Shown: positions 7,663 through 58,546 of the stretch, one piece after another
Layout of the letters: each line of letters starts with the position of its first letter
Position numbering within the stretch: position 1 is the stretch's first letter
IMG/VR virus record: IMGVR_UViG_3300047476_001329
Source of the DNA: a virus
Strand: one strand, 5' to 3'
Length of the DNA: 64,000 bases
Notes under the pieces: model-generated
Seen by the model: the letters and a program-made list of their open reading frames with translations, nothing else
Told to the model about the DNA's origin: nothing
Databases searched by the model: none
Program-made: the position numbers and the translations under genes

Positions 7663-8277
7663 ATGGAAGGAAAATTAACATATCAAGAAAAATCAAGTGA
7701 ACTTATAAACAGTGTTGAGGGATGGTTTATCACAAGTGATGACGGTACCAATCATTATAAAGTTTCAACTATGTCCACTGAAAAAATTAACAGTGGTAAT
7801 TACAATTTTAAATCAGGAGACACAGTTAGTTATATTTTAAAAACTAGTTGTTATGTTTCAGGAAACGAAATCGTACATGATACTGTTGCCGATTTAATGA
7901 CAACACCAGTACCAACCAAAAAAGTATTTTTAATCGATATTGACGGTACGGTTTGTGACGATATAAAGAACGAAGATTCACACCTTTACCCAACGGCAAA
8001 ACATTTCCCGAGAGCTTTGGACATAATAAACAAATGGTATGATGAAGGTCACATCATTACCTTCTTTACCGCGAGAGAGAGTAAAGATAGAGAAGTGACA
8101 GAAACATGGTTAAAAGAAAAAGGATTCAAATACCATGGTTTGGTTATGGATAAACCAAGAATAAAAGATGGGCAAGAATATGTATGGATTGATAATCGAA
8201 AGGTTAGAGCAATAACATATCTTGGAACATGGTCGGAATTAAAAGAAGTGGATGCTAAAATTCAAACATTTGAATAA
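7663..8277 (+). CDS. HAD-superfamily hydrolase (phosphatase/nucleotidase-like)
   Basis: 'KVFLIDIDGTVCDD' matches HAD motif I (DxDGT). Lies directly upstream of the ThyA-family gene with stop/start overlap. Confidence 0.5.
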   Translation: MEGKLTYQEKSSELINSVEGWFITSDDGTNHYKVSTMSTEKINSGNYNFKSGDTVSYILKTSCYVSGNEIVHDTVADLMTTPVPTKKVFLIDIDGTVCDDIKNEDSHLYPTAKHFPRALDIINKWYDEGHIITFFTARESKDREVTETWLKEKGFKYHGLVMDKPRIKDGQEYVWIDNRKVRAITYLGTWSELKEVDAKIQTFE

Positions 8278-23118: not shown

Positions 23119-23970
23119 ATGGACCCAATTATTAGAAGAATCGTTTTTGGAATTTCAACATTCCTATTATTAACTGTACTATTTTTCTCATGTGAGAGAA
23201 TCGATGCTGGACATGTCGGTGTAAAGGTAAATCTTTACGGTGATGGTAAAGGTGTGGATGATGTTACTGAATGTACTGGTATGGTATTTTACAACCCATT
23301 CACCACCAAAATCTACGAGTTCCCGACGTTTATTCAACATAAAGAATACAAGAAGACGGAAGAGGTGGATAATTCCTTTGTGGTTAACTCAAAGGATGGT
23401 TCAGAATTTCAGGTATCACCTATCATGAACTATTCTGTACAAAGGGAAAAGGTACCAACAATTTTCTCAAAGTATCGTAGGTCACTCCCCGAAATTGAGG
23501 AAGGTTTCTTAAAAACCGCGGTATATGATGCGTTTCGTTTAGCGACCAATAAATACACCGCAGATGAACTCATCTCAAACAGAGCGGTCTTCGAAGTTGA
23601 AGTACGTAAAATGTTGGAGGGTCAGTTGTTAAAAGAGGGATTTATTATAAATCAATTCACCTCCAATTTAATTTATCCTGAAACCTTTAAAAAATCTATT
23701 GAGGCTAAGAACAACGCGGTACAAGCTGCTTTAAGAGCGGAGAATGAAGTAAAAACCGCGGAAGCCCAAGCTAAGATTAAAATCGCAACCGCTAATGGTA
23801 ACGCCCAAGCCATGTTAACATCGGCCAAAGCGGAAGCTGAAGCCAATAGGATGAAACAACAAACATTAACTCCATTATTGTTACAACTTGAATGGATTAA
23901 TAAGTGGAATGGTCGACTACCTGAAACGATGTTAGGAGACAAGAATAATACAATGATAGGTATTAAATAA
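23119..23970 (+). CDS. SPFH/band-7 (prohibitin/stomatin-like) domain protein
   Basis: N-terminal TM, then 'GHVGVKVNLYG' and an Ala/Glu/Lys-rich coiled coil typical of SPFH proteins. Confidence 0.55.
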   Translation: MDPIIRRIVFGISTFLLLTVLFFSCERIDAGHVGVKVNLYGDGKGVDDVTECTGMVFYNPFTTKIYEFPTFIQHKEYKKTEEVDNSFVVNSKDGSEFQVSPIMNYSVQREKVPTIFSKYRRSLPEIEEGFLKTAVYDAFRLATNKYTADELISNRAVFEVEVRKMLEGQLLKEGFIINQFTSNLIYPETFKKSIEAKNNAVQAALRAENEVKTAEAQAKIKIATANGNAQAMLTSAKAEAEANRMKQQTLTPLLLQLEWINKWNGRLPETMLGDKNNTMIGIK

Positions 23971-35079: not shown

Positions 35080-35619
35080 ATGGGGAGTCTCAATTTTCAT
35101 GAGGATATTAAAATAGGTTTAACCAACGAACAAATAGTCGTGGACATATTTGAAAGGGAATATGACGCGAAATGTGTTGGTAAGAGTGAAAAGGAAATTG
35201 GGAATCACAAAGAATTTGATTTAATATTTAATTTCCCAACAAAATCGAATGTGATTGCTGAAGTAAAGACTGAGGATAAATGGGTCCAACCCGGTAGAAG
35301 TTTACCAAATGGAGCATATTTTCCCGGTATTGACACAGGTAACTTGTGTATTGAGTATATGATGCACGGAAAAGATAGTGGTATCATGGTCACTAAATCA
35401 GATTTGTGGGTGATTGTATTCATGAACATAAAAGAAGTTTGGGTAATTAGAACCGAAAAATTAAGGAATTTAATTTCTGAGAATAACTTCAAAATTAAAA
35501 TTGGTGGTGATGAAGTTTATGCTGGTACTAACACTTTAATACCAGAAGAAAAGAGGTCACACATGTATCTAATTCCAAGAAAAGACTTTGAGAGTCACTT
35601 TACAATTTTAAAATACTAA
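35080..35619 (+). CDS. hypothetical protein, possible PD-(D/E)xK nuclease fold
   Basis: 'EFDLIFNF...AEVKTED' has D...E-x-K spacing. Weak. Confidence 0.3.
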   Translation: MGSLNFHEDIKIGLTNEQIVVDIFEREYDAKCVGKSEKEIGNHKEFDLIFNFPTKSNVIAEVKTEDKWVQPGRSLPNGAYFPGIDTGNLCIEYMMHGKDSGIMVTKSDLWVIVFMNIKEVWVIRTEKLRNLISENNFKIKIGGDEVYAGTNTLIPEEKRSHMYLIPRKDFESHFTILKY

Positions 35620-36032
35620 TAAGAACTTTCACTAACAAAGTCTCTAAGTATTTGACCCATCACATTAGCAAAATTTAATTGTAATAGTTCTTCCTGAGTA
35701 ACGAATCTCAGATATTGACCTTCATTTAAAGGGATTTCCTCAAGTGGTTTATTGATTACACCTCTGAATATATATTTCACGTTAGGTGTCACATCCCCTT
35801 CTGTACAAACATATTTTTTCCAAAAAGAAAAACTTCTTAAGTCACTCGTGGTTTGTTCAATCTCCTCCATCATTTCCCTTTTAAGTGCTTCGATGGGTGT
35901 TTCTCTTTTTTCAACATGACCGCCAATTAAGTCCCAATGATTGGGAAATGGAATTTCAGGATTATCATCCCTAAGGTAAACCAAATATTTACCTTCTAGA
36001 TTTTGGAGAATTATTTGAGATATTTGTACCAT
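35616..36032 (-). CDS. Nudix hydrolase
   Basis: Nudix box 'GGHVEKRETPIEALKREMMEEIE'. Confidence 0.7.
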   Translation of the reverse strand: MVQISQIILQNLEGKYLVYLRDDNPEIPFPNHWDLIGGHVEKRETPIEALKREMMEEIEQTTSDLRSFSFWKKYVCTEGDVTPNVKYIFRGVINKPLEEIPLNEGQYLRFVTQEELLQLNFANVMGQILRDFVSESSY

Positions 36033-41278: not shown

Positions 41279-41542
41279 ATGAAAATATTTAAATCATCAG
41301 GTTACACAGAAAACGACACTATGTGCTCAGGAACAATTTACAAATTTAAGGACCGTTGGTTCTTCCGTTACATTTTAATGTTTGATGATGAGTATACCGA
41401 AATACCGGTAAACGAATCATCAATCCCAAACTCAAAACTCATCACTGAATTCTACGAGACAGGGGCTAGAGTTAATGCTAGAATTGTTACCAAGAGAACA
41501 GAGGACGGGAGAGTTTACGATGAGGCAATTTTAGTAGAATGA
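41279..41542 (+). CDS. hypothetical protein
   Basis: 87-aa ORF. Confidence 0.3.
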   Translation: MKIFKSSGYTENDTMCSGTIYKFKDRWFFRYILMFDDEYTEIPVNESSIPNSKLITEFYETGARVNARIVTKRTEDGRVYDEAILVE

Positions 41543-42165
41543 TAGACAATTTAGAATTAATCAAACCACTTTTGAACTTCGAAAACGAAGGGGACTTTTA
41601 TATGCTCTACGTTTTCAAAAGGAAAAAGGACCAAACTACAGATAAGGCGAACCATCAATCGGTTCGTACAATCAAAACATATTGTGTTGAGAGTATTGAT
41701 TATCTTGAAAAGAGATACGAAGAAATCAAACAACTTTGTGAGATGTTCAAGTCTCGAGCATACATCCATATACAAAAACAAAATCACCAAGATGTGTCTT
41801 TGGAAATGATGGTTGCATTAGCAAACAAAATTCGTAATGGTCAACACAGACAACAACACCTATTCGATTCAGTTGTTGGTCAATTAAAAACGTTAGAAAA
41901 ACGTTGGATTGTTGATATTGACACCAAGGACGAAGAGGCCGTACATAAAATCGCTCGTTTAATTGATAGGTTACGTCCCGAAGGTTCCAAAATCGAAGCT
42001 GTTATCCCAACTAAAAGTGGATATCACTTCATCACCAAAAGATTTGACGTGATGGAGTTCAATAAGATTATGTCTTTGCAGGGTGATGTTCCTGATATTC
42101 AAAAGAAGAATCCAACACTACTTTATTTACCCGATTGTTTACATCAAGATATAGAACATGTTTAA
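41539..42165 (+). CDS. hypothetical protein
   Basis: 208-aa ORF overlapping the neighbouring starts/stops (operon). Confidence 0.35.
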   Translation: MIDNLELIKPLLNFENEGDFYMLYVFKRKKDQTTDKANHQSVRTIKTYCVESIDYLEKRYEEIKQLCEMFKSRAYIHIQKQNHQDVSLEMMVALANKIRNGQHRQQHLFDSVVGQLKTLEKRWIVDIDTKDEEAVHKIARLIDRLRPEGSKIEAVIPTKSGYHFITKRFDVMEFNKIMSLQGDVPDIQKKNPTLLYLPDCLHQDIEHV

Positions 42166-42889
42166 ATTTTATGAGGTTGGCGGTAAAGTTAGAGATGAAA
42201 TCTTAGAGTTAGAATCTAAAGATGTGGATTATGTTGCGGTACCAAGTGATGGTTTGTTAAAAGATGTTACTTCGGCACACGACATGTTCGGTATTCTTGA
42301 GAGTTACCTTAAGGAAGAAGGATTTGAACTATTTTTGGTTACACCCGACTGTTTCACAATCCGTGCTAAGTTCCCGAAAGAACATAAGTACGAAGGTGTT
42401 GCCGATTTTGTCATGGCAAGAAAGGAAGTAGGTTACATTCCTGGTACTAGACAACCAATCATCCAACCCGGTACTTTATTCGATGATTTAGAAAGAAGAG
42501 ACTTTACCCTCAACGCGTTGGCGAAAGACGAAGATGGTAAGATAATTGATTTCTTCAATGGGTTGGAACATTTAAAGAAGGGTATGTTAGTAACACCATT
42601 AAATGTTAATGATACATTCAACGATGACCCACTTCGTATTTTAAGAGCCATTAGATTCTCTATTACCAAAGGATTTACAATTGGTGCGTTTATGGATTTA
42701 GTGATTCAAGATTACGATTACAACAAAAAAATGAAGGTGGTTTCTGTAGAGAGGATTAGAGAAGAATTGTTTAAATGTTTTAAGCACGATACGATTAAAA
42801 CTTTAAGAGTTCTCAATGATTATCCAAAACTTAGAAATTACATCTTCAAAAAAAATATTCTGTGGTTAAAACCAACATTAGAAAAATGA
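42158..42889 (+). CDS. tRNA nucleotidyltransferase (CCA-adding enzyme) / poly(A) polymerase head-domain protein
   Basis: 'VGGKVRDEILELESKDVDYVAV' matches the GG-x-V-R-D...D-x-D nucleotidyltransferase head motif of CCA-adding enzymes. 243 aa (minimal). Confidence 0.55.
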   Translation: MFKFYEVGGKVRDEILELESKDVDYVAVPSDGLLKDVTSAHDMFGILESYLKEEGFELFLVTPDCFTIRAKFPKEHKYEGVADFVMARKEVGYIPGTRQPIIQPGTLFDDLERRDFTLNALAKDEDGKIIDFFNGLEHLKKGMLVTPLNVNDTFNDDPLRILRAIRFSITKGFTIGAFMDLVIQDYDYNKKMKVVSVERIREELFKCFKHDTIKTLRVLNDYPKLRNYIFKKNILWLKPTLEK

Positions 42890-43413: not shown

Positions 43414-43450
43414 AAACAAAATTGTGAAAAATTTTATTTAAAAATTTTTC

Positions 43451-43477
43451 GGATATCAAAAAATATTTCTATATTTG
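43451..43477 (+). promoter_or_regulatory. phage promoter-like motif
   Basis: 'ggatatcaaaaaatatttctatatttg' ends 19 nt before the ATG at 43497. Confidence 0.45.
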
Positions 43478-43496
43478 TGAATAATAAATCACAAAT

Positions 43497-44984
43497 ATGA
43501 ATCCACTTCTTTTAACTGACGGTTATAAAACCGGACATCACCAACAATATCCAAAGGGGACAACGTTGGTTTATTCAAATTTCACACCACGTAGTAACAA
43601 GTACGCACCCAAGGGATGTGACAAAGTGGTATCTTTCGGTCAACAAATGGTTATGAAACAAATCCACGATATGTTTCAAAATTATTTCTTTAAACGACCA
43701 AAAGAAGAAGTTATCTCTGAAATCAAACAAGAGATGTCTTGGTACTTAGGTACTGAGTACGATGTCTCACATTTTGAAAAATTACATGATTTAGGATATC
43801 TTCCAATTCATGTTAAGGGAATTGAAGAAGGAACATTGGTTCCAATTAAAGTTCCGGTGTTGACGATTTATAACACCGAACCCGAGTTCTATTGGGTTAC
43901 GAATTATTTGGAGACAATCATTTCAAATTTATTATGGAAACCGATGACATCGGCAACCATTGCGTATCAATATAGAAAAGTATTGACTCAATGGATGTTA
44001 AAAACTGACCCTGAAAGGGCGTGGTTCATCGATTGGCAAGGACACGACTTCTCAATGAGAGGTATGGATTCAATCGCGGCAACGATTAGTTCGGGACTTG
44101 GACATGCAACATCATTCATGGGTTCAGATTCTTTACCTGTTATCCACGGAGCTCGTAAATTCTATGGAGCACAAGGACCTGTTGTCGGTAGTGTTAATGC
44201 TACCGAACACAGTGTAATGTGTGCGGGTTCTAAAGAAGATGAGATTGGTACATTCCGCAGATTATTGGAAACTTATCCAACAGGAATCTTATCAGTTGTA
44301 TCAGATACATGGGACTTATGGAAAGTATGTACTGAACACGTAGTCACTTTGAAAGAAGAGATTATGGCTCGTGATGGTAAATTGGTTATTCGTCCTGACT
44401 CAGGCGACCCAGTTGATATTATTTGTGGATTGAACTCAAAACCTCCAATTATGATAGATTCAGAATTATTGAAATCGAAAGATGTTCACAATGAACCTAA
44501 AGTAAAAGGAGTAATTGAATTACTTTGGGATGTGTTCGGTGGTACGGTCAACGAACAAGGTTATAAAGTACTTGACTCCCATATTGGTGCAATCTACGGT
44601 GACTCAATCACAATCGACAGAGCTGAAGAAATCTGTAAGAGATTGGAAGCAAAAGGTTTTGCATCAACAAACATTGTATTAGGTGTTGGTTCTTTCACAT
44701 ATCAATATAATACAAGAGATACATTTGGTTTCGCGATGAAGGCAACATACGTTGAAGTGGATGGGGAAGGTCGTGAAATCTTCAAGGACCCAATCACCGA
44801 CGACGGTACTAAGAAATCTGCAACCGGTTTATTGTCGGTCTTCAAAGATGATAATTTAGTTTATCGATTACACGACCATTGTGATTGGGATACCGAATCA
44901 AAAGGAGAACTCCAAACCATTTACAAAGATGGCACTTTACGAAATGTTGTATCATTTGAAGAAATTCGTTTACGTTTAAAATAA
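43497..44984 (+). CDS. nicotinamide phosphoribosyltransferase-like (NAMPT / Namat-type)
   Basis: 'MNPLLLTDGYKTGHHQQYP' closely matches the NAMPT N-terminus (compare 'NILLATDSYKVTHYKQYPP'). 495 aa. 'LDSHIGAIYGDSIT' region. Confidence 0.85.
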   Translation: MNPLLLTDGYKTGHHQQYPKGTTLVYSNFTPRSNKYAPKGCDKVVSFGQQMVMKQIHDMFQNYFFKRPKEEVISEIKQEMSWYLGTEYDVSHFEKLHDLGYLPIHVKGIEEGTLVPIKVPVLTIYNTEPEFYWVTNYLETIISNLLWKPMTSATIAYQYRKVLTQWMLKTDPERAWFIDWQGHDFSMRGMDSIAATISSGLGHATSFMGSDSLPVIHGARKFYGAQGPVVGSVNATEHSVMCAGSKEDEIGTFRRLLETYPTGILSVVSDTWDLWKVCTEHVVTLKEEIMARDGKLVIRPDSGDPVDIICGLNSKPPIMIDSELLKSKDVHNEPKVKGVIELLWDVFGGTVNEQGYKVLDSHIGAIYGDSITIDRAEEICKRLEAKGFASTNIVLGVGSFTYQYNTRDTFGFAMKATYVEVDGEGREIFKDPITDDGTKKSATGLLSVFKDDNLVYRLHDHCDWDTESKGELQTIYKDGTLRNVVSFEEIRLRLK

Positions 44985-44989
44985 AAACC

Positions 44990-45964
44990 GTGGCAGAAGT
45001 ATTAAATTTAGTAAACCCAAACGATATACTTTCATTTAAGTACAAGATAAGTCGTTTCCCCGATGGTCAACAATCTTTACAATTGACTGAAGATGGTTAC
45101 AACACATTTGAATCTCTCAGACATTCTAATAACGCACATGGTATCATTATCAAATCAAGGTTGAACACTTTCAGTGACCTTGAACTAATCATATGTGCAA
45201 CTAAGGCATTGAGAAACGTTGGTGTTAAGAACATTGAACTTTATATTCCATATTGTATCGGGGGTAGAAGTGACCGTAAGTTTATGGAAGGTGGAATCAA
45301 TTACATTAAAGATGTAATTGCGCCAATCATCAATTCTCAAGGGTATGAAAGGGTAATCATTATGGACCCACATAGTGATGTATTGGAAGCATGTATCGAC
45401 AACTTTGTTAAGATTGATAACTTAAAGATTGCTAACTTCGCTTTACGTGATTATTTCATTTCAAAAGGATTTGAAACATGGAGTGCGGATAATTTTGAAA
45501 AGGTTCGGTTTGTTTCTCCTGATGCTGGTGCATTGAAAAAAGTATTCCACGTTGCTGAGAATGTAAAATACAAACACAACGTTATAATTTCTTCAAAACA
45601 TCGTAACATTGAAACCGGTGCAATTGATTACACCGATGTTCCAATGTCAGTACACGATGCCGATAAGGACTTCTTCATCTTTGATGATATTTGTGATGGT
45701 GGTAGAACCTTTATCGAGATAGCTAAGGCAATCGAAGAGAAAAGAAAGTTATCAAGTGTAGTTCAACCACAACATTATGGTAAGAACTACTTAGTGGTTA
45801 CCCACGGTATTTTCAGTGTAGGTTTTGACTTCCTAGTCCAATATTTTGACGGTATCTACTGTACAAATAGTGTAAAAGATATTCGAGACGGAACTATTGT
45901 GGACACGTTCTCAAGACACAAAACAATTCATTCATTAGTTAAACAATTAGATGTATTCAAATGA
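44990..45964 (+). CDS. ribose-phosphate pyrophosphokinase-like (PRPP synthetase / Adps-type)
   Basis: 'KISRFPDGQQSLQL' (PRS N-domain F-x-DGE-like motif) and 'FFIFDDICDGGRTF' (PRPP-binding loop). Confidence 0.75.
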   Translation: MAEVLNLVNPNDILSFKYKISRFPDGQQSLQLTEDGYNTFESLRHSNNAHGIIIKSRLNTFSDLELIICATKALRNVGVKNIELYIPYCIGGRSDRKFMEGGINYIKDVIAPIINSQGYERVIIMDPHSDVLEACIDNFVKIDNLKIANFALRDYFISKGFETWSADNFEKVRFVSPDAGALKKVFHVAENVKYKHNVIISSKHRNIETGAIDYTDVPMSVHDADKDFFIFDDICDGGRTFIEIAKAIEEKRKLSSVVQPQHYGKNYLVVTHGIFSVGFDFLVQYFDGIYCTNSVKDIRDGTIVDTFSRHKTIHSLVKQLDVFK

Positions 45965-46434
45965 GAATAACAGATAACTACGTGTTCTTTTGGAGTGGAA
46001 TTTATTCCCAATGGCACAAAGCACCAATGGTAATCGACAAGGTCGAATACAATTCATGTGAACAATATATGATGCATCAAAAAGCATTACTTTTTGAAGA
46101 CAATGAGATTGCAGAATTGATTATGAAAGAGTCAAACCCGAGGGAACAAAAGAGGTTTGGTCGAATGATTAAGAACTTTAATAAATCCGTTTGGGAAAAG
46201 AATTGTCTGGCAATTGTGTATGAGGGAAACTTAGCCAAGTTTACTCAAAACCCTGACTTAATGTCGGCGATGTTAAGTACTGGAGATAGAATCTTTGTTG
46301 AAGCATCTCCACTTGATAACATTTGGGGAATTGGGATGAAAGAGGACCATCCGGATATTGAGGACCCCTCATATTGGTTAGGTCTTAATTTATTGGGACA
46401 GGCATTAAATCTTGTTAAAAATAAAATAAAATAA
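45961..46434 (+). CDS. NADAR (YbiA/DUF1768) domain protein
   Basis: 'NYVFFWSGIYSQWH' and 'YNSCEQYMMHQKALLFED' are the conserved NADAR blocks. Confidence 0.7.
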   Translation: MRITDNYVFFWSGIYSQWHKAPMVIDKVEYNSCEQYMMHQKALLFEDNEIAELIMKESNPREQKRFGRMIKNFNKSVWEKNCLAIVYEGNLAKFTQNPDLMSAMLSTGDRIFVEASPLDNIWGIGMKEDHPDIEDPSYWLGLNLLGQALNLVKNKIK

Positions 46435-46435
46435 T

Positions 46436-46543
46436 ATGGAACAACTACATCCAGTGGCCCAAGTAGTAGGAATCATTGTAATCGGCATCTGTGTATGTGT
46501 TGCACTTTTAGCCATGTTCACCACCTATTTTGATAAGCGTTGA
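46436..46543 (+). CDS. tiny hydrophobic peptide (35 aa)
   Basis: Unlisted ORF 'MEQLHPVAQVVGIIVIGICVCVALLAMFTTYFDKR'. Confidence 0.2.
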   Translation: MEQLHPVAQVVGIIVIGICVCVALLAMFTTYFDKR

Positions 46544-46544
46544 T

Positions 46545-46991
46545 ATGAGTACAATGAAAGAATACTTCGATAAGAACCCCGAGTCTCTCCCATATCTTCA
46601 AAGATTGGAGGATGAGTGGAAAATGTACGGTAAGATAATCATTGCGTGTGATTATGATGATACCATATCACCATGGAAGATGCAAAACAGGGATTTCAAA
46701 AGAGTTTTTGAAGTACTGACAGTTGCAAAACAAACCGGTGCGTATGTCGTTATCTTCACCGCATGTAAAGAAGACCGTTACCCTGAAATTACTAAGTATT
46801 GTATGGACAATGGTTTGGAAATCGATGGGATTAACACCACACCAATTGATTTACCTTACGGTAACGATAAAAAGATTTACGCAAACGTGTTCATTGATGA
46901 CCGTGCGGGTTTAAATGAATCATTGAACATTTTGGAGATGGCAATGTATCGTATCCGTGGTAGTAAATCATCAGAAGGATTTGATTTTTAA
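46545..46991 (+). CDS. HAD-like hydrolase (putative)
   Basis: Start moved to 'MSTMKEY'. 'KIIIACDYDDTISPW' is HAD motif I-like. Confidence 0.4.
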   Translation: MSTMKEYFDKNPESLPYLQRLEDEWKMYGKIIIACDYDDTISPWKMQNRDFKRVFEVLTVAKQTGAYVVIFTACKEDRYPEITKYCMDNGLEIDGINTTPIDLPYGNDKKIYANVFIDDRAGLNESLNILEMAMYRIRGSKSSEGFDF

Positions 46992-47010: not shown

Positions 47011-47811
47011 ATGGGACTTGACATTTATTTGTATCGATACGATAACTTTGAGAGAAATAGAGAACTCGAAGAAAATTACGAAAGTTATTCGGAAAAACTT
47101 TGGGCTGAAGCTGGTGAATATGAAAATTTAACTCAAGAACAGAAAGATGAAATTAGGTCTAAACTTAAAGAGTACGCGTTACCTTTAGGTTTGGATGAAT
47201 GGGGTTCTTGTGATGATGGTGTTGATATGATTGAGGAAACTCATCCCGATTATCCTGACCACTATTTTAAAATTGGTTACTTCAGAAGTTCATATAATGA
47301 AGGTGGTATTGAAAGAATCCTTAGGAATCTCGGATTATCAACTTTACATGACATCTTCAATTATGAATCGGGTGATGAATATTATTTCCAACCAAATTGG
47401 GAAGAATCTTTGGTTCGTTGTGAAGAGACAATTGAATTATTTAGACAGAAGGGAGGATATCGTGTTCATCACGTATCGGGAAATATCTTTAAACAACCTG
47501 ATGTACATTCTGAAAAAGATGCGTTAGACATTTTCTTGGAGGAACTTGAAAAAGAAAGACCTACTCGAAATGATGGGGAAAGGTATAATTATTCAAACTC
47601 CCGTGGTGAGTTTAACATGGCGGAACCAATAAAAGTATTGGCATTTATACCGGGAACATATAAAATCTTTAATAGTCAACCTTGTGTTTATGTTGTAACT
47701 GAAAGTGATAACACTTGGTACATAAACGCACTTGAGATTGTTCGCGACACTATCAAATACGTACTATCAAAAGAAAACAAAGAACAATACTACTTACATT
47801 GGTCGGGATAA
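47011..47811 (+). CDS. hypothetical protein
   Basis: 266-aa ORF. Confidence 0.4.
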   Translation: MGLDIYLYRYDNFERNRELEENYESYSEKLWAEAGEYENLTQEQKDEIRSKLKEYALPLGLDEWGSCDDGVDMIEETHPDYPDHYFKIGYFRSSYNEGGIERILRNLGLSTLHDIFNYESGDEYYFQPNWEESLVRCEETIELFRQKGGYRVHHVSGNIFKQPDVHSEKDALDIFLEELEKERPTRNDGERYNYSNSRGEFNMAEPIKVLAFIPGTYKIFNSQPCVYVVTESDNTWYINALEIVRDTIKYVLSKENKEQYYLHWSG

Positions 47812-49302: not shown

Positions 49303-49782
49303 ATGAAGTATCTAGGACAAAATGAATTAGGACAAGAAGTTTTCCATAATCAACCACCAGAAGTTGATTGGGCGGGTGTTGATTATGATGGGGAACTAAA
49401 TTTTGGTATTGCAATCAACCCGAGGTATACATGGGCTTCCGAAGTTTGGAGGGGTTATGAAAAAATTGGTGAGTCCGTTGAGAATAGTGGTTACAAGGCA
49501 CTAACTCAAGTTATGAGAATTAACCAACCCCAAGATTTGGTGGAAACCAAACAATCAATTACTCTTGAAGACTTGAAAGATTTTGATGTGTGGAAATCTT
49601 GGAAACACGATGAGGTTACATTGGAACCGCTCTATACTGAAAAAGAGGTTGATAGAATTTTGGATACCCAAAGAGGAAACTCTTTCGTGGCAGTTCTTGA
49701 TAAAACAAATGATACAAAAATTTCGTCCTTAGCGAGTAACGCACCGGAACCGTGGGGATGGAGAAAAAGTAAAAAACAATGA
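49303..49782 (+). CDS. hypothetical protein
   Basis: 159-aa ORF. Confidence 0.35.
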   Translation: MKYLGQNELGQEVFHNQPPEVDWAGVDYDGELNFGIAINPRYTWASEVWRGYEKIGESVENSGYKALTQVMRINQPQDLVETKQSITLEDLKDFDVWKSWKHDEVTLEPLYTEKEVDRILDTQRGNSFVAVLDKTNDTKISSLASNAPEPWGWRKSKKQ

Positions 49783-50237
49783 TGTTAAAAGAAAAAATAC
49801 AAGAATCGTTTTTAATTGCTTTCAAAGCAAAAGATGAAACTGCAAAATCTGCATTGAGTAGCATCAAAGCAGCAATCACTATTGCAGAAAAACAAGATGG
49901 TTTAGGTGACTTATCAGATGATAATGTAATCAAACTAATAAATAAGGCAATCAAACAACGTGAAGAATCTCAAAAGATTTACGAAGATGCTGGTAGAGAT
50001 GAGTTGGCTCGTAAAGAATGTGATGAAGCATCTGTCCTTCGTGCATTCTTACCAAAACAAATGACACCTCAAGAAATCACCGATGCACTTACTGAAATTA
50101 TTCAAGGATTCTCAGGTGTTGTTACCAACCCACAAGTGTTGATTGGTAAATCAATCGGAGAGTTTAATAAAAGACACCAAGGTAAAGCGGACATTGGTAC
50201 CGTTAAGGAAATTGTAACTAAATTAGTACAATCATGA
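49779..50237 (+). CDS. GatB/YqeY-domain protein
   Basis: 'LKEKIQESFLIAFKAKDE...ALSSIKAAI...KQREESQKIYEDAGRDELARKE...LRAFLPKQMTPQEI' follows the YqeY family pattern throughout. Confidence 0.6.
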   Translation: MMLKEKIQESFLIAFKAKDETAKSALSSIKAAITIAEKQDGLGDLSDDNVIKLINKAIKQREESQKIYEDAGRDELARKECDEASVLRAFLPKQMTPQEITDALTEIIQGFSGVVTNPQVLIGKSIGEFNKRHQGKADIGTVKEIVTKLVQS

Positions 50238-58262: not shown

Positions 58263-58333
58263 AGTCAGGTGGCGTACTGGGAGACGCTCCGTGTATAGAC
58301 GGGAGAGGGTAGGTTCGATTCCTACCCTGACTA
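58263..58333 (+). tRNA. tRNA-like gene E2 (71 nt; anticodon arm non-canonical, isotype unresolved)
   Basis: Acceptor agtcagg/cctgact. D-arm gcgt-actgggag-acgc. T-arm gtagg-ttcgatt-cctac. The anticodon region 'tccgtgtatagacggg' folds either as a 5-bp stem with a 6-nt loop or a 4-bp stem with an 8-nt loop, not the usual 7-nt loop. Confidence 0.5.
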
Positions 58334-58444
58334 CAAAAATTGTGAGTGAAATATATAGAACTCTCCTTATGTGATGTAAAGCTTTCCTTTCACATATAGT
58401 AATGGAAGTGCGGACACCTTAGCCTAAGTTATCAATCAAGGAAT

Positions 58445-58532
58445 AGTCAGGTGGCGGAATTGGTAGACGCCCTGTTTCTAGACGATGGCCGAAAGCAAGA
58501 TTTCGGTACAGGTTCGAATCCTGTCCTGACTA
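58445..58532 (+). tRNA. class II tRNA with long variable arm, probable tRNA-Leu(UAG)
   Basis: Acceptor agtcagg/cctgact. D-loop 'gaattggtaga'. Anticodon arm ctgtt-tcTAGac-gatgg (G-U rich stem). Variable arm hairpin ccgaaa-gcaaga-tttcgg. T-arm acagg-ttcgaat-cctgt. No encoded CCA. Confidence 0.6.
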
Positions 58533-58546
58533 CAAAAAATAAAATT

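Follow-up and report, generated by a model that had tools for sequence, protein, structure and literature searches.

When a phage carries, side by side, a gene resembling nicotinamide phosphoribosyltransferase (NAMPT) and a gene resembling phosphoribosyl pyrophosphate (PRPP) synthetase (PRS), a question of enzymatic identity has to be settled first: is this an ordinary salvage route, or is it a pathway that rebuilds NAD+ from the very products of its destruction by host immunity? The question is raised here by a gene array in a 64,000-nucleotide stretch of viral DNA, IMG/VR record IMGVR_UViG_3300047476_001329 (hereafter, the window, i.e., this stretch at its full length), in which such a pair is followed by a gene for a NADAR protein, a very short open reading frame (ORF) and a gene for a small phosphatase of the HAD superfamily. 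An earlier note on this DNA had proposed that the first three genes form a candidate module of the NARP1 type, in which NAD+ is reconstituted by the enzymes Adps and Namat; at the level of sequence, the pair does qualify as NARP1, by the motif of its Namat, the features of its Adps and the adjacency of the two genes. Here we argue that the array is a NARP1 NAD+ reconstitution operon extended by three more genes, which probably broaden the range of what the pathway takes in, and we put the probability of this reading at roughly 0.8. NARP1 is an established counter-defence system of about 4-5% of sequenced phages, and both NARP1 and extended NARP1 operons are already known. What has to be established, then, is how well the core pair fits the known system and what the additional genes might contribute to it.

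The core enzyme pair

NARP1 is called where homologues of Adps and Namat are encoded close together (Osterman et al.), and in the window the two genes are close neighbours in just this sense, on one strand and 5 nucleotides apart. The first gene had been described as a NAMPT homologue, which it is: its product matches the Pfam families NAPRTase (E 4.5e-39) and NAMPT_N, as well as phrog_448 (E 3e-195). The best relatives among solved structures are 9W5X and 9W5W (534.9 bits, E 1.8e-159), crystal structures of the SPbetaL1 Namat, to which the window protein is 52% identical. Animal and bacterial Nampts score about 218 bits, and the best PDB entry that does not carry a Nampt-like label scores 225.7 bits, so that the match to the solved Namat is, in bits, 2.4-fold above that to any Nampt.

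A Namat is defined by its selectivity clamp, which Nampt lacks; the clamp helix has the form GS-X-phi-X-phi-X-phi-TRD, with aromatic, adenine-stacking residues in positions 3 and 7. Residues 398-408 of the window protein read GSFTYQYNTRD, the same as in SPbetaL1, including the aromatic residues F400 and Y404. As judged from alignment A4, the protein further keeps D8, Y10, F185, R188, the Asp of GSDS, A235, H238, R299 and D301, along with G368-D369, G398-S399 and T406-R407-D408 (F400 and Y404 being retained there as well); every contact to nicotinamide, to nicotinamide mononucleotide (NMN) or ribose-phosphate and to AMP is conserved, as is the catalytic His. The 495-residue protein is predicted to be a Namat, which would convert the pyrophosphorylated form of ADP-ribose (ADPR), ADPR-PP, and nicotinamide to NAD+ and pyrophosphate.

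The second gene, likewise, is the PRS homologue that it had been taken for (phrog_619, E 9e-56; the Pfam family Pribosyltran is matched below threshold). Its product, however, stays under the cut-offs for genuine Prs, with 85 bits against TIGR01251 (cut-off 113) and at most 66 bits against the Prs equivalogs of NCBIfam (cut-offs of at least 296), and the solved PRPP synthetases match it with 42 bits at best. Our alignment A1 includes the Adps of ICP1, which has been crystallised and assayed, the assayed Adps of SPbetaL1, and the Adps of Bas60, a member of the BASEL group that includes Bas63. Residues F18, R87, H121, D161, K185 (the Lys of the catalytic beta-hairpin), D212 and D213 of ICP1 Adps stand in invariant columns of this alignment, the window protein included; the catalytic K185 and the acceptor-site residues R87, H121, D161, D212 and D213 are found in E. 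coli Prs as well and mark competence, not specificity. The PP-loop, which forms the donor site, is conserved in type among homologues of Adps; that of the window protein reads DDICDGGRTF, as in Adps of the Bas60 type, as compared to DDICDGAASF in ICP1 and DDMIDTGGTL in E. coli Prs. A leave-one-out hidden Markov model (HMM) of Adps, from the building of which the window protein was excluded, assigns it 173 bits versus 102.5 bits for E. coli Prs; in BLASTP comparisons, it scores 131 bits with Bas60 Adps, 97 with ICP1 Adps and 60.5 with E. coli Prs, the one cellular Prs compared. Its identity to the SPbetaL1, ICP1 and Bas60 enzymes amounts to 32-36%; it is longer than these, owing to an insert and to 30 additional residues at its end. 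Adps is expected to have lost the alpha11-alpha12 regulatory module that PRPP synthetases carry at the C-terminus; the 30-residue tail of the window protein does not, in sequence comparison, align to the C-terminus of Prs. Placement of the window protein in the phage Adps clade, apart from cellular Prs, appears well supported, albeit not proven, and the 324-residue protein is predicted to be an Adps that would convert ADPR and ATP to ADPR-PP and AMP.

The peptides by which the earlier note had recognised these enzymes (LLTDGYKTGHHQQYP, FPDGQQ and DDICDGGRT) are all found in the ORFs. The note had also named a check on its own proposal, namely whether both enzymes belong to canonical NadV/Prs clades and possess PRPP-specific residues; the outcome, as far as sequence can tell, favours NARP1. 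With the scores and the motif that separate Namat from Nampt, the features of the Adps and the 5-nucleotide adjacency taken together, the pair counts as NARP1 at the level of sequence, and the first two genes can be regarded with high confidence as its core.

The gene array and its boundaries

The three co-directional ORFs noted earlier lie at the positions originally given for them (Table 1), and the spacers between genes range from -4 to 5 nucleotides across the whole array. Translational coupling, which had been claimed for all three genes, is plausible at the 4-nucleotide overlap (ATGA) of the Adps and NADAR genes and possible at the 5-nucleotide gap between Namat and Adps. The end of the module, formerly set at 46434, proved premature: the array goes on through the micro-ORF and the HAD gene, with spacers of a single nucleotide both between the NADAR stop and the micro-ORF and between the micro-ORF and the HAD start codon. 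A scan for terminator-like sites, evaluated against shuffled sequences, found none between the genes of the array.

The single promoter-like motif that was supposed to drive the operon could not be recovered. A scan with the sigma-70 consensus gave no plus-strand site in the 82-nucleotide intergenic region 43414-43496 and, overall, 17 sites as compared to 22.7 expected from shuffles, i.e., fewer than by chance. This AT-rich spacer upstream of Namat contains, instead, a perfect 8-bp inverted repeat that occurs once in the window, has 0 matches in shuffled sequences and yields an RNA fold of -13.1 kcal/mol (z = -3.2 versus shuffles). The repeat might form an RNA hairpin or serve as an operator; as the related loci do not conserve it upstream of Namat, we do not count it among the features of the family.

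Table 1. Coordinates of the gene array and of other features of the window
Feature	Coordinates	Strand	Remarks
Inverted repeat ATTTGTGA-N8-TCACAAAT	43473-43496	+	perfect; abuts the Namat ATG
Namat	43497-44984	+	495 residues, ATG start
Adps	44990-45964	+	324 residues, GTG start
NADAR	45961-46434	+	157 residues, ATG start
Micro-ORF	46436-46543	+	35 residues, hydrophobic, MEQLHPVAQVVGIIVIGICVCVALLAMFTTYFDKR
HAD phosphatase	46545-46991	+	148 residues, ATG start
Downstream gene	47011-47811	+	266 residues; 19 nucleotides past the HAD stop
Second HAD-type phosphatase domain	7663-8274	+	weak LNS2 and acid-phosphatase-B matches, sub-threshold PNKP-phosphatase match
Nudix hydrolase, stand-alone	35619-36032	-	138 residues; surrounded by plus-strand genes
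CCA-adding tRNA nucleotidyltransferase	42158-42889	+	two genes upstream of Namat
tRNA gene	58263-58334	+	identity ambiguous (two-base 'at' anticodon call by ARAGORN)
tRNA-Leu(TAG)	58445-58533	+	

The accessory genes

Of the three genes that follow the core, the one encoding the HAD protein stands out by the genes that accompany it. HAD phosphatases have four motifs on a Rossmannoid core, namely DxDx(T/V), a T/S, a K/R and an acidic pair (DD or ExxxD). In the 148-residue product, these correspond to D36-Y-D38-D-T40, T72, K110 and D118-D119, which vary little or not at all among 23 relatives; all four motifs are intact in each of the six proteins aligned, i.e., the window protein and its NARP1-linked homologues from five other phages. 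The AlphaFold2 (AF2) model (pLDDT 84.9) has a fold like that of 2OBB, the BT_0820 protein of Bacteroides thetaiotaomicron, which is also the best and the sole significant match among solved structures (profile E 1e-5, Foldseek E 1.2e-4). Against NF046079, the NCBIfam model of the BT0820 family, the protein scores 26.1 bits, below the cut-off of 165, and is, for this reason, considered a distant relative and not a member of that family; it matches no Pfam family, and its PHROG match is phrog_1238 (E 1.6e-19). Judging by the motifs and the model, we are dealing with a small capless (C0-type) phosphatase of the HAD superfamily, for which dephosphorylation of a phospho-ADP-ribose species to ADPR is the predicted function. 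In public phage records (NC_031024.1, NC_055880.1, NC_041917.1 and others), accessories of this kind are mislabelled, NARP1-linked HAD proteins as 'phosphoheptose isomerase' or 'polynucleotide kinase' and phage NADARs as 'GTP cyclohydrolase'.

The HAD gene is a recurrent partner of NARP1 and is linked to it more strongly than NADAR. In many of the 17 IMG/VR loci that were found with the window Adps, it forms an unbroken block with Adps and Namat, the order being Adps-HAD-Namat in L012, L013 and L019. Namat-HAD-Adps is the order in the crAss-like phages cr111_1, cr126_1 and DAC15; the gene lies within the NARP1 operon of Bacillus phage Belinda (Adps-Namat-HAD) and Vibrio phage VPT02 (Adps-HAD-Namat), and it adjoins Adps in Prevotella phage Lak-B5.

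The third gene of the array had been identified as encoding a NADAR (YbiA-like) protein, and the assignment is borne out by PF08719 (E 3.2e-49; 167.8 bits with a cut-off of 35.1), TIGR02464 (146 bits with a cut-off of 73.7), the solved structure 8BAU (55.9 bits) and phrog_1017 (E 8.5e-49). Seven of the eight active-site residues of PnNADAR from P. nicotianae are retained: E43, K50, R79, W89, E125, D130 and W133 correspond to E34, K41, R68, W78, E114, D119 and W122 of the window protein, with R93 replaced by C82. The position equivalent to E125 is reported to be Asp in DarG1, His in the T4-type AdfN NADARs of phages and Glu in the YbiA subfamily; hence, E114 places the window protein in the YbiA subfamily and with neither the DarG1 nor the AdfN type. 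By its active-site set, the window NADAR is an intact YbiA-type enzyme. Every NADAR subtype that has been assayed hydrolyses guanine-ADPr, with release of ADPR, although protection in vivo is subtype-specific; phage NADARs neutralise DarTG1 (PMC11257639, PMC11125620), and NADARs of the YbiA type have a known role in damage control, as N-glycosidases that act on reactive intermediates of riboflavin.

Within 5 kb of Namat, NADAR is found in six distinct lineages (L014, L051, L063, L086, L119 and the window), in diverse arrangements: Adps and NADAR overlap in L051, the order is Adps-Macro-NADAR in L086, and NADAR abuts Namat in L119. The catalytic residues are retained in all NADARs of the NADAR-bearing NARP1 loci. 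It seems reasonable to suggest, as the earlier note did, that NADAR widens the module beyond the two-gene pathway, and the recurrent linkage of NADAR and NARP1 in uncultivated relatives lends this view some support. The idea that phage NADARs in general lie next to NARP1 was, by contrast, rejected: such a placement is missing in all three cultured phages that were checked, which have the closest NADARs. A separate observation concerns a YqeY-like protein (PF09424, E 4.5e-33) encoded at 49779-50234 on the plus strand, 2.8 kb downstream of the HAD gene: YqeY genes track the NADAR-bearing NARP1 loci, being present in L051, L063, L119 and the window.

The micro-ORF between these two genes was left uncalled by gene callers on identical contigs. 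In L010, L011 and L027, its peptide recurs beside Adps or HAD with 71-91% of amino acids conserved; L065 has it too, and a homologue with 65% amino acid identity directly precedes NADAR in L014. Given this conservation at the protein level (65-91%), the micro-ORF is taken to be a real gene, the product of which is probably a single-pass membrane peptide; no description of it as a NARP1 partner was met in the literature.

The gene that follows HAD encodes a 266-residue protein with a confident AF2 model (pLDDT 88.7), which has no Pfam or PHROG family and no significant match among solved structures (best Foldseek E 0.19). It has 655 metagenome relatives, on contigs reaching 434 kb, and in L014 it sits between Namat and Adps. 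We do not claim this gene as a member of the module, its model being confident but without a fold match.

NARP1 neighbourhoods in other phages

For a broader view of what accompanies NARP1, 80 IMG/VR loci were fetched with a Namat alignment, and the 5 kb on either side were scanned with HMMs; upon collapsing the loci at 90% Namat identity, 58 groups with Adps in range were obtained, the counts for which ignore shared ancestry. The most common neighbours were a nucleoside-deoxyribosyltransferase-like gene of the PF15891 family (19 of 58 groups), Macro-like (Adpp-like) genes and SPFH genes (15 each) and HAD genes (14), followed by Metallophos (7), NADAR (3) and YqeY (3). HAD and Macro-like genes occur together in 2 groups where 5.5 would be expected; Fisher's test gives p = 0.045, with no correction for phylogeny. 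The notion that HAD is a straight non-homologous replacement of Macro/Adpp was, in view of the two locus groups in which both co-occur, downgraded to one option among several.

Several observations from these loci stand apart from the array in question. The PF15891 gene, the commonest neighbour of NARP1 (e.g., L043:6733-7206, L014:9463-9936 and L027:6548-7015), is absent from the window; it is found together with Macro-like genes in 11 groups, well above the 4.3 to be expected (p = 8e-5 without correction for ancestry), and we met no description of it as a NARP1 partner in the literature. In some loci, Namat (L022:1873-4679) or Adps (L025:1638-4246 and L026:5971-7608) is broken into a pair of ORFs that lie 0.7-1.7 kb from each other, and in others LAGLIDADG, GIY-YIG and NUMOD3 endonuclease genes lie between the NARP1 genes; together, the split ORFs and the endonuclease genes suggest invasion of NARP1 genes by introns or homing endonucleases.

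Proposed mechanism and alternative explanations

The scenario that we envisage would start with host NADase effectors of the TIR, SIR2, SEFIR or DSR type, which would split NAD+ into ADPR and nicotinamide. Adps, using ATP, would pyrophosphorylate the free ribose of ADPR to yield ADPR-PP, and Namat would then swap the pyrophosphate for nicotinamide, regenerating NAD+ directly; we infer these two steps from close homology and from the conservation of the residues that experimentally define the activities. NADAR would free ADPR from N-glycosidically linked ADP-ribose, e.g., guanine-ADPr on DNA, whereas the HAD phosphatase would strip phosphate off a phosphorylated ADPR species that Adps cannot use, the candidates being ADPR-1''-P, the product of RES-type NADases, 2'-phospho-ADPR derived from NADP+ and the hydrolysis products of ADPR-cyclic-phosphate. 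In both cases, the product would feed the core pathway, after the precedent of Macro/Adpp in NARP1-AP and of RyDEP (see below). Gene linkage and family chemistry together suggest that the accessory enzymes probably convert ADP-ribose derivatives to ADPR.

Could the core itself be something more conventional, namely a salvage route in which an ordinary Prs and a NadV/Nampt make PRPP and NMN and an NMN adenylyltransferase (NMNAT) of the host or the phage completes the synthesis, be it as a NARP2-like system or as a metabolic boost? The automated names would agree with this: NF006629, 'nicotinate phosphoribosyltransferase', is matched with 549 bits, above the cut-off, and in PHROG the two proteins come under 'nicotinamide phosphoribosyl transferase' and under 'ribose-phosphate pyrophosphokinase'. 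It is also known from the literature that Namat keeps some PRPP-dependent NMN synthesis in vitro, and the catalytic residues of Adps are mostly common to PRPP synthetases. Such names are, however, difficult to reconcile with the presence of a clamp motif that Nampt does not have and the 2.4-fold higher bit score of the Namat match, or with a PRS-like protein that falls under all Prs cut-offs and has a PP-loop of the Adps type. Moreover, an NMNAT did not turn up in the window, CTP_transf_like being absent among the 25 of 39 Pfam families listed, the sole Nudix gene is a stand-alone one on the opposite strand, and a published survey puts Nampt-like genes that adjoin a PRS-like gene in the NARP1 clade. 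We consider PRPP salvage highly improbable; the NARP2 and the canonical Prs/NadV readings were rejected on the strength of the Namat motif and the missed Prs cut-offs. Two other explanations accept the NARP1 core and differ in what they make of the additional genes. These could be independent neighbours, assembled by the clustering of auxiliary and anti-defence genes, with NADAR acting as a stand-alone anti-DarT1-like factor that, like T4 AdfN, clears phage DNA of ADP-ribose, and HAD as an unrelated (poly)nucleotide phosphatase. Indeed, NADARs hydrolyse guanine-ADPr, and phage ones neutralise DarTG1; in the three cultured phages whose NADARs are closest, the gene is located away from NARP1; in Bacillus phages PJN02 and 2S-4, more than 20 kb separate NADAR from Namat; its proximity to NARP1 is limited to 3 of 58 groups; and some annotators of Bacillus phages have termed the HAD protein 'polynucleotide kinase'. 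What speaks for a common function is that, across unrelated phage families and hosts, HAD is flanked by Adps on one side and Namat on the other, the stop codon of one gene often overlapping the start codon of the next; such an arrangement is hard to account for without a functional link. NADAR, too, stays in or beside NARP1 through rearrangements (Adps-NADAR, Macro-NADAR, NADAR-Namat), and the residue by which the subfamilies are told apart is Glu in the window NADAR, as opposed to His in T4-type AdfN. We regard independence of the neighbours as possible, if doubtful. Alternatively, the accessories might not extend the defence range but serve as housekeeping of the pathway, with phosphoesterases (Metallophos, Macro, HAD) returning to ADPR the dead-end ADPR-cyclic-phosphate into which ADPR-PP spontaneously decays, and NADAR reversing non-enzymatic N-glycosidic adducts of reactive free ADPR, of which a large pool would be present. 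ADPR-cyclic-phosphate has been reported, as a breakdown product of ADPR-PP, in infected cells and in vitro, Metallophos and Macro-like genes are found near NARP1 in 7 and 15 of the 58 groups, HAD accompanies Macro in L031, and damage control is what YbiA-type NADARs are known for. This explanation looks unlikely to us, considering that Adpp, the Macro accessory, has been shown to act on ADPR-1''-P, the product of aRES, and to be required against aRES, and that most NARP1 operons function free of accessories.

A NARP1 operon with a widened input has difficulties of its own, which have to be set beside the evidence for it. As to the core, the Namat-then-Adps order is in the minority (15 loci versus 51), and R40, which contacts adenine by stacking in the clamp loop of the SPbetaL1 Namat, is K35, followed by Y36, in the window protein; this loop is variable, and most other Namats in alignment A4 read N/G-K-(Y/H) at the R40 site. 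The Adps family is very divergent, to the extent that some bona fide phage Adps, of the Staphylococcus, crAss and Bacillus types, score below E. coli Prs against the window protein. As to the accessories, NADAR is scarce near NARP1, and the closest NADARs of cultured phages, those of Serratia phage BF, Vibrio phage phiKT1024 and Bacillus phage WH1, have no NARP1 nearby in any of the three cases. HAD and Macro-like genes can co-occur, the order in L031 being Adps-Macro-HAD-Namat, and Ralstonia phage RSL2 has a weaker HAD homologue without NARP1 nearby, the sole such case among the cultured or complete lineages checked. Finally, the group counts carry no correction for common descent.

Relation to known systems

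The NARP1 systems of Bas63, SPbetaL1 and ICP1 (Osterman et al.; bioRxiv 10.1101/2024.02.11.579819; structure papers PMC12774641 and PMC13586617) share with the window the same enzyme pair, the Namat motif, the Adps residues and the predicted chemistry, but not the gene order, which is inverted here, with Namat first, nor the three extra genes that are packed into the array. Closer in organisation is NARP1-AP of Vibrio phage Gary (Adps-Adpp-Namat; bioRxiv 10.64898/2026.01.28.702374), likewise a NARP1 operon with a small phosphatase; in many relatives of the window locus, HAD occupies exactly the slot of Adpp between Adps and Namat. The window phosphatase, however, belongs to the HAD superfamily, whereas Adpp is a Macro domain, and since the two can co-occur, their substrates may differ. 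Neither an HMM of Macro-like proteins built from related loci nor the 25 of 39 Pfam families listed revealed a Macro protein in the window.

The logic that we propose for NADAR is the same as that of RyDEP in the NARP1 locus of mycobacteriophage DyoEdafos (bioRxiv 10.64898/2026.05.28.727677), a NARP1-embedded glycosidase that provides linear ADPR to Adps and Namat. RyDEP is, however, a RyR-domain O-glycosidase acting on 2'/3'cADPR, whereas NADAR has an unrelated fold and cleaves N-glycosidic ADP-ribosyl bonds. AdfN (T4 gp30.3; PMC11257639, PMC11125620) resembles the window NADAR as a stand-alone protein with the catalytic Glu and the remaining active site; it has His where the window protein has E114 and has not been reported in a NARP1 operon. 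In the papers that could be searched, NADAR and Namat are mentioned together once, and there AdfN figures as an anti-DarT factor in its own right. In the NARP1 papers that could be searched, which cover the literature incompletely, neither a NADAR nor a HAD-type enzyme is mentioned as a partner of NARP1.

NARP2 of Vibrio phage KVP40, which comprises a Nampt and a bifunctional Nmnat/Nudix protein, similarly restores NAD+ with the help of a phage enzyme of the Nampt family. The NARP2 Nampts have no adjacent Adps and prefer PRPP, while the window has an Adps, a Namat motif and, within its 64 kb, no Nmnat that was seen. As to the HAD protein, its similarity to BT_0820 (PDB 2OBB, deposited as 'conserved protein') extends to the capless Rossmannoid core with DxDxT, at 21% identity. 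Compared with these systems, the core of the window operon is ordinary, and it is the accessory set of NADAR, micro-ORF and HAD that constitutes a testable lead.

The source phage and its other genes

The window belongs to a large uncultivated low-GC phage with a Gp23-type capsid: its GC content is about 33%, the plus strand carries almost every gene, and besides the capsid protein there are genes for helicases, two tRNAs, a CCA-adding enzyme and a thymidylate synthase. When the locus was compared with cultured phages by megablast, the one match spanned 226 bp, so that there is no close isolate. Contigs encoding the identical 324-residue protein, with the same neighbour genes, come from one Logan run as well as from five NCBI metagenome assemblies; the same gene order in six independent samples rules out an assembly chimera.

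A second HAD-type phosphatase domain, the CCA-adding enzyme and the two tRNA genes (Table 1) point to functions of the phage in RNA repair or tRNA maintenance. The stand-alone Nudix hydrolase, if it hydrolyses ADPR, would compete with Adps for its substrate. One ORF of the window matches PF10686 (YAcAr, a SLOG family related to YspA/cpYpsA) with E 1.9e-14; as SLOG domains bind nucleotide-derived ligands, this ORF could be relevant to ADPR-based signalling. Two further genes of the window, both on the plus strand, have homologues next to NARP1 elsewhere. A SPFH/Band 7 protein is encoded at 23119-23967, 20 kb from the NARP1 genes, and its homologues adjoin NARP1 in the crAss-like phage cr126_1; a 208-residue protein of phrog_14949 is encoded at 41539-42165, and in L021 and L025, which are more distant loci, its homologues are immediate neighbours of Adps.

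Implications

The published cases of Macro/Adpp, which acts against aRES, and RyDEP, which acts against Thoeris signals, show that one can learn from genes embedded in NARP1 operons in what ways hosts diversify the chemistry by which NAD+ is destroyed. The HAD gene sits inside NARP1 in very different phages, namely crAss-like phages of Bacteroides, Bastille-like phages of Bacillus and a T5-like phage of Vibrio, and beside Adps in a Lak megaphage. One might tentatively, and with considerable reserve, picture a modular 'ADP-ribose funnel' built around NARP1, where NADAR and the BT0820-like HAD protein, and perhaps PF15891 and Metallophos proteins in related loci, serve as substrate-converting accessories that would bring non-canonical products of NAD+ breakdown or ADP-ribosyl conjugates back to ADPR, from which NAD+ is made anew. 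Should this be true, the candidate inputs of the funnel would be phospho-ADPR species, DNA-bound N-glycosidic ADPR and immune signals with N-linked ADPR, and the HAD protein would represent a second, non-Macro class of NARP1-associated phosphatases, present in about a quarter of the sampled NARP1 loci. Each accessory would then flag a defence chemistry of the host, perhaps one not yet described. Once known, the substrates of the accessory enzymes could expose further NAD+-cleaving or ADP-ribosylating defences and, concomitantly, lead to a better annotation of the HAD and NADAR proteins of phages.

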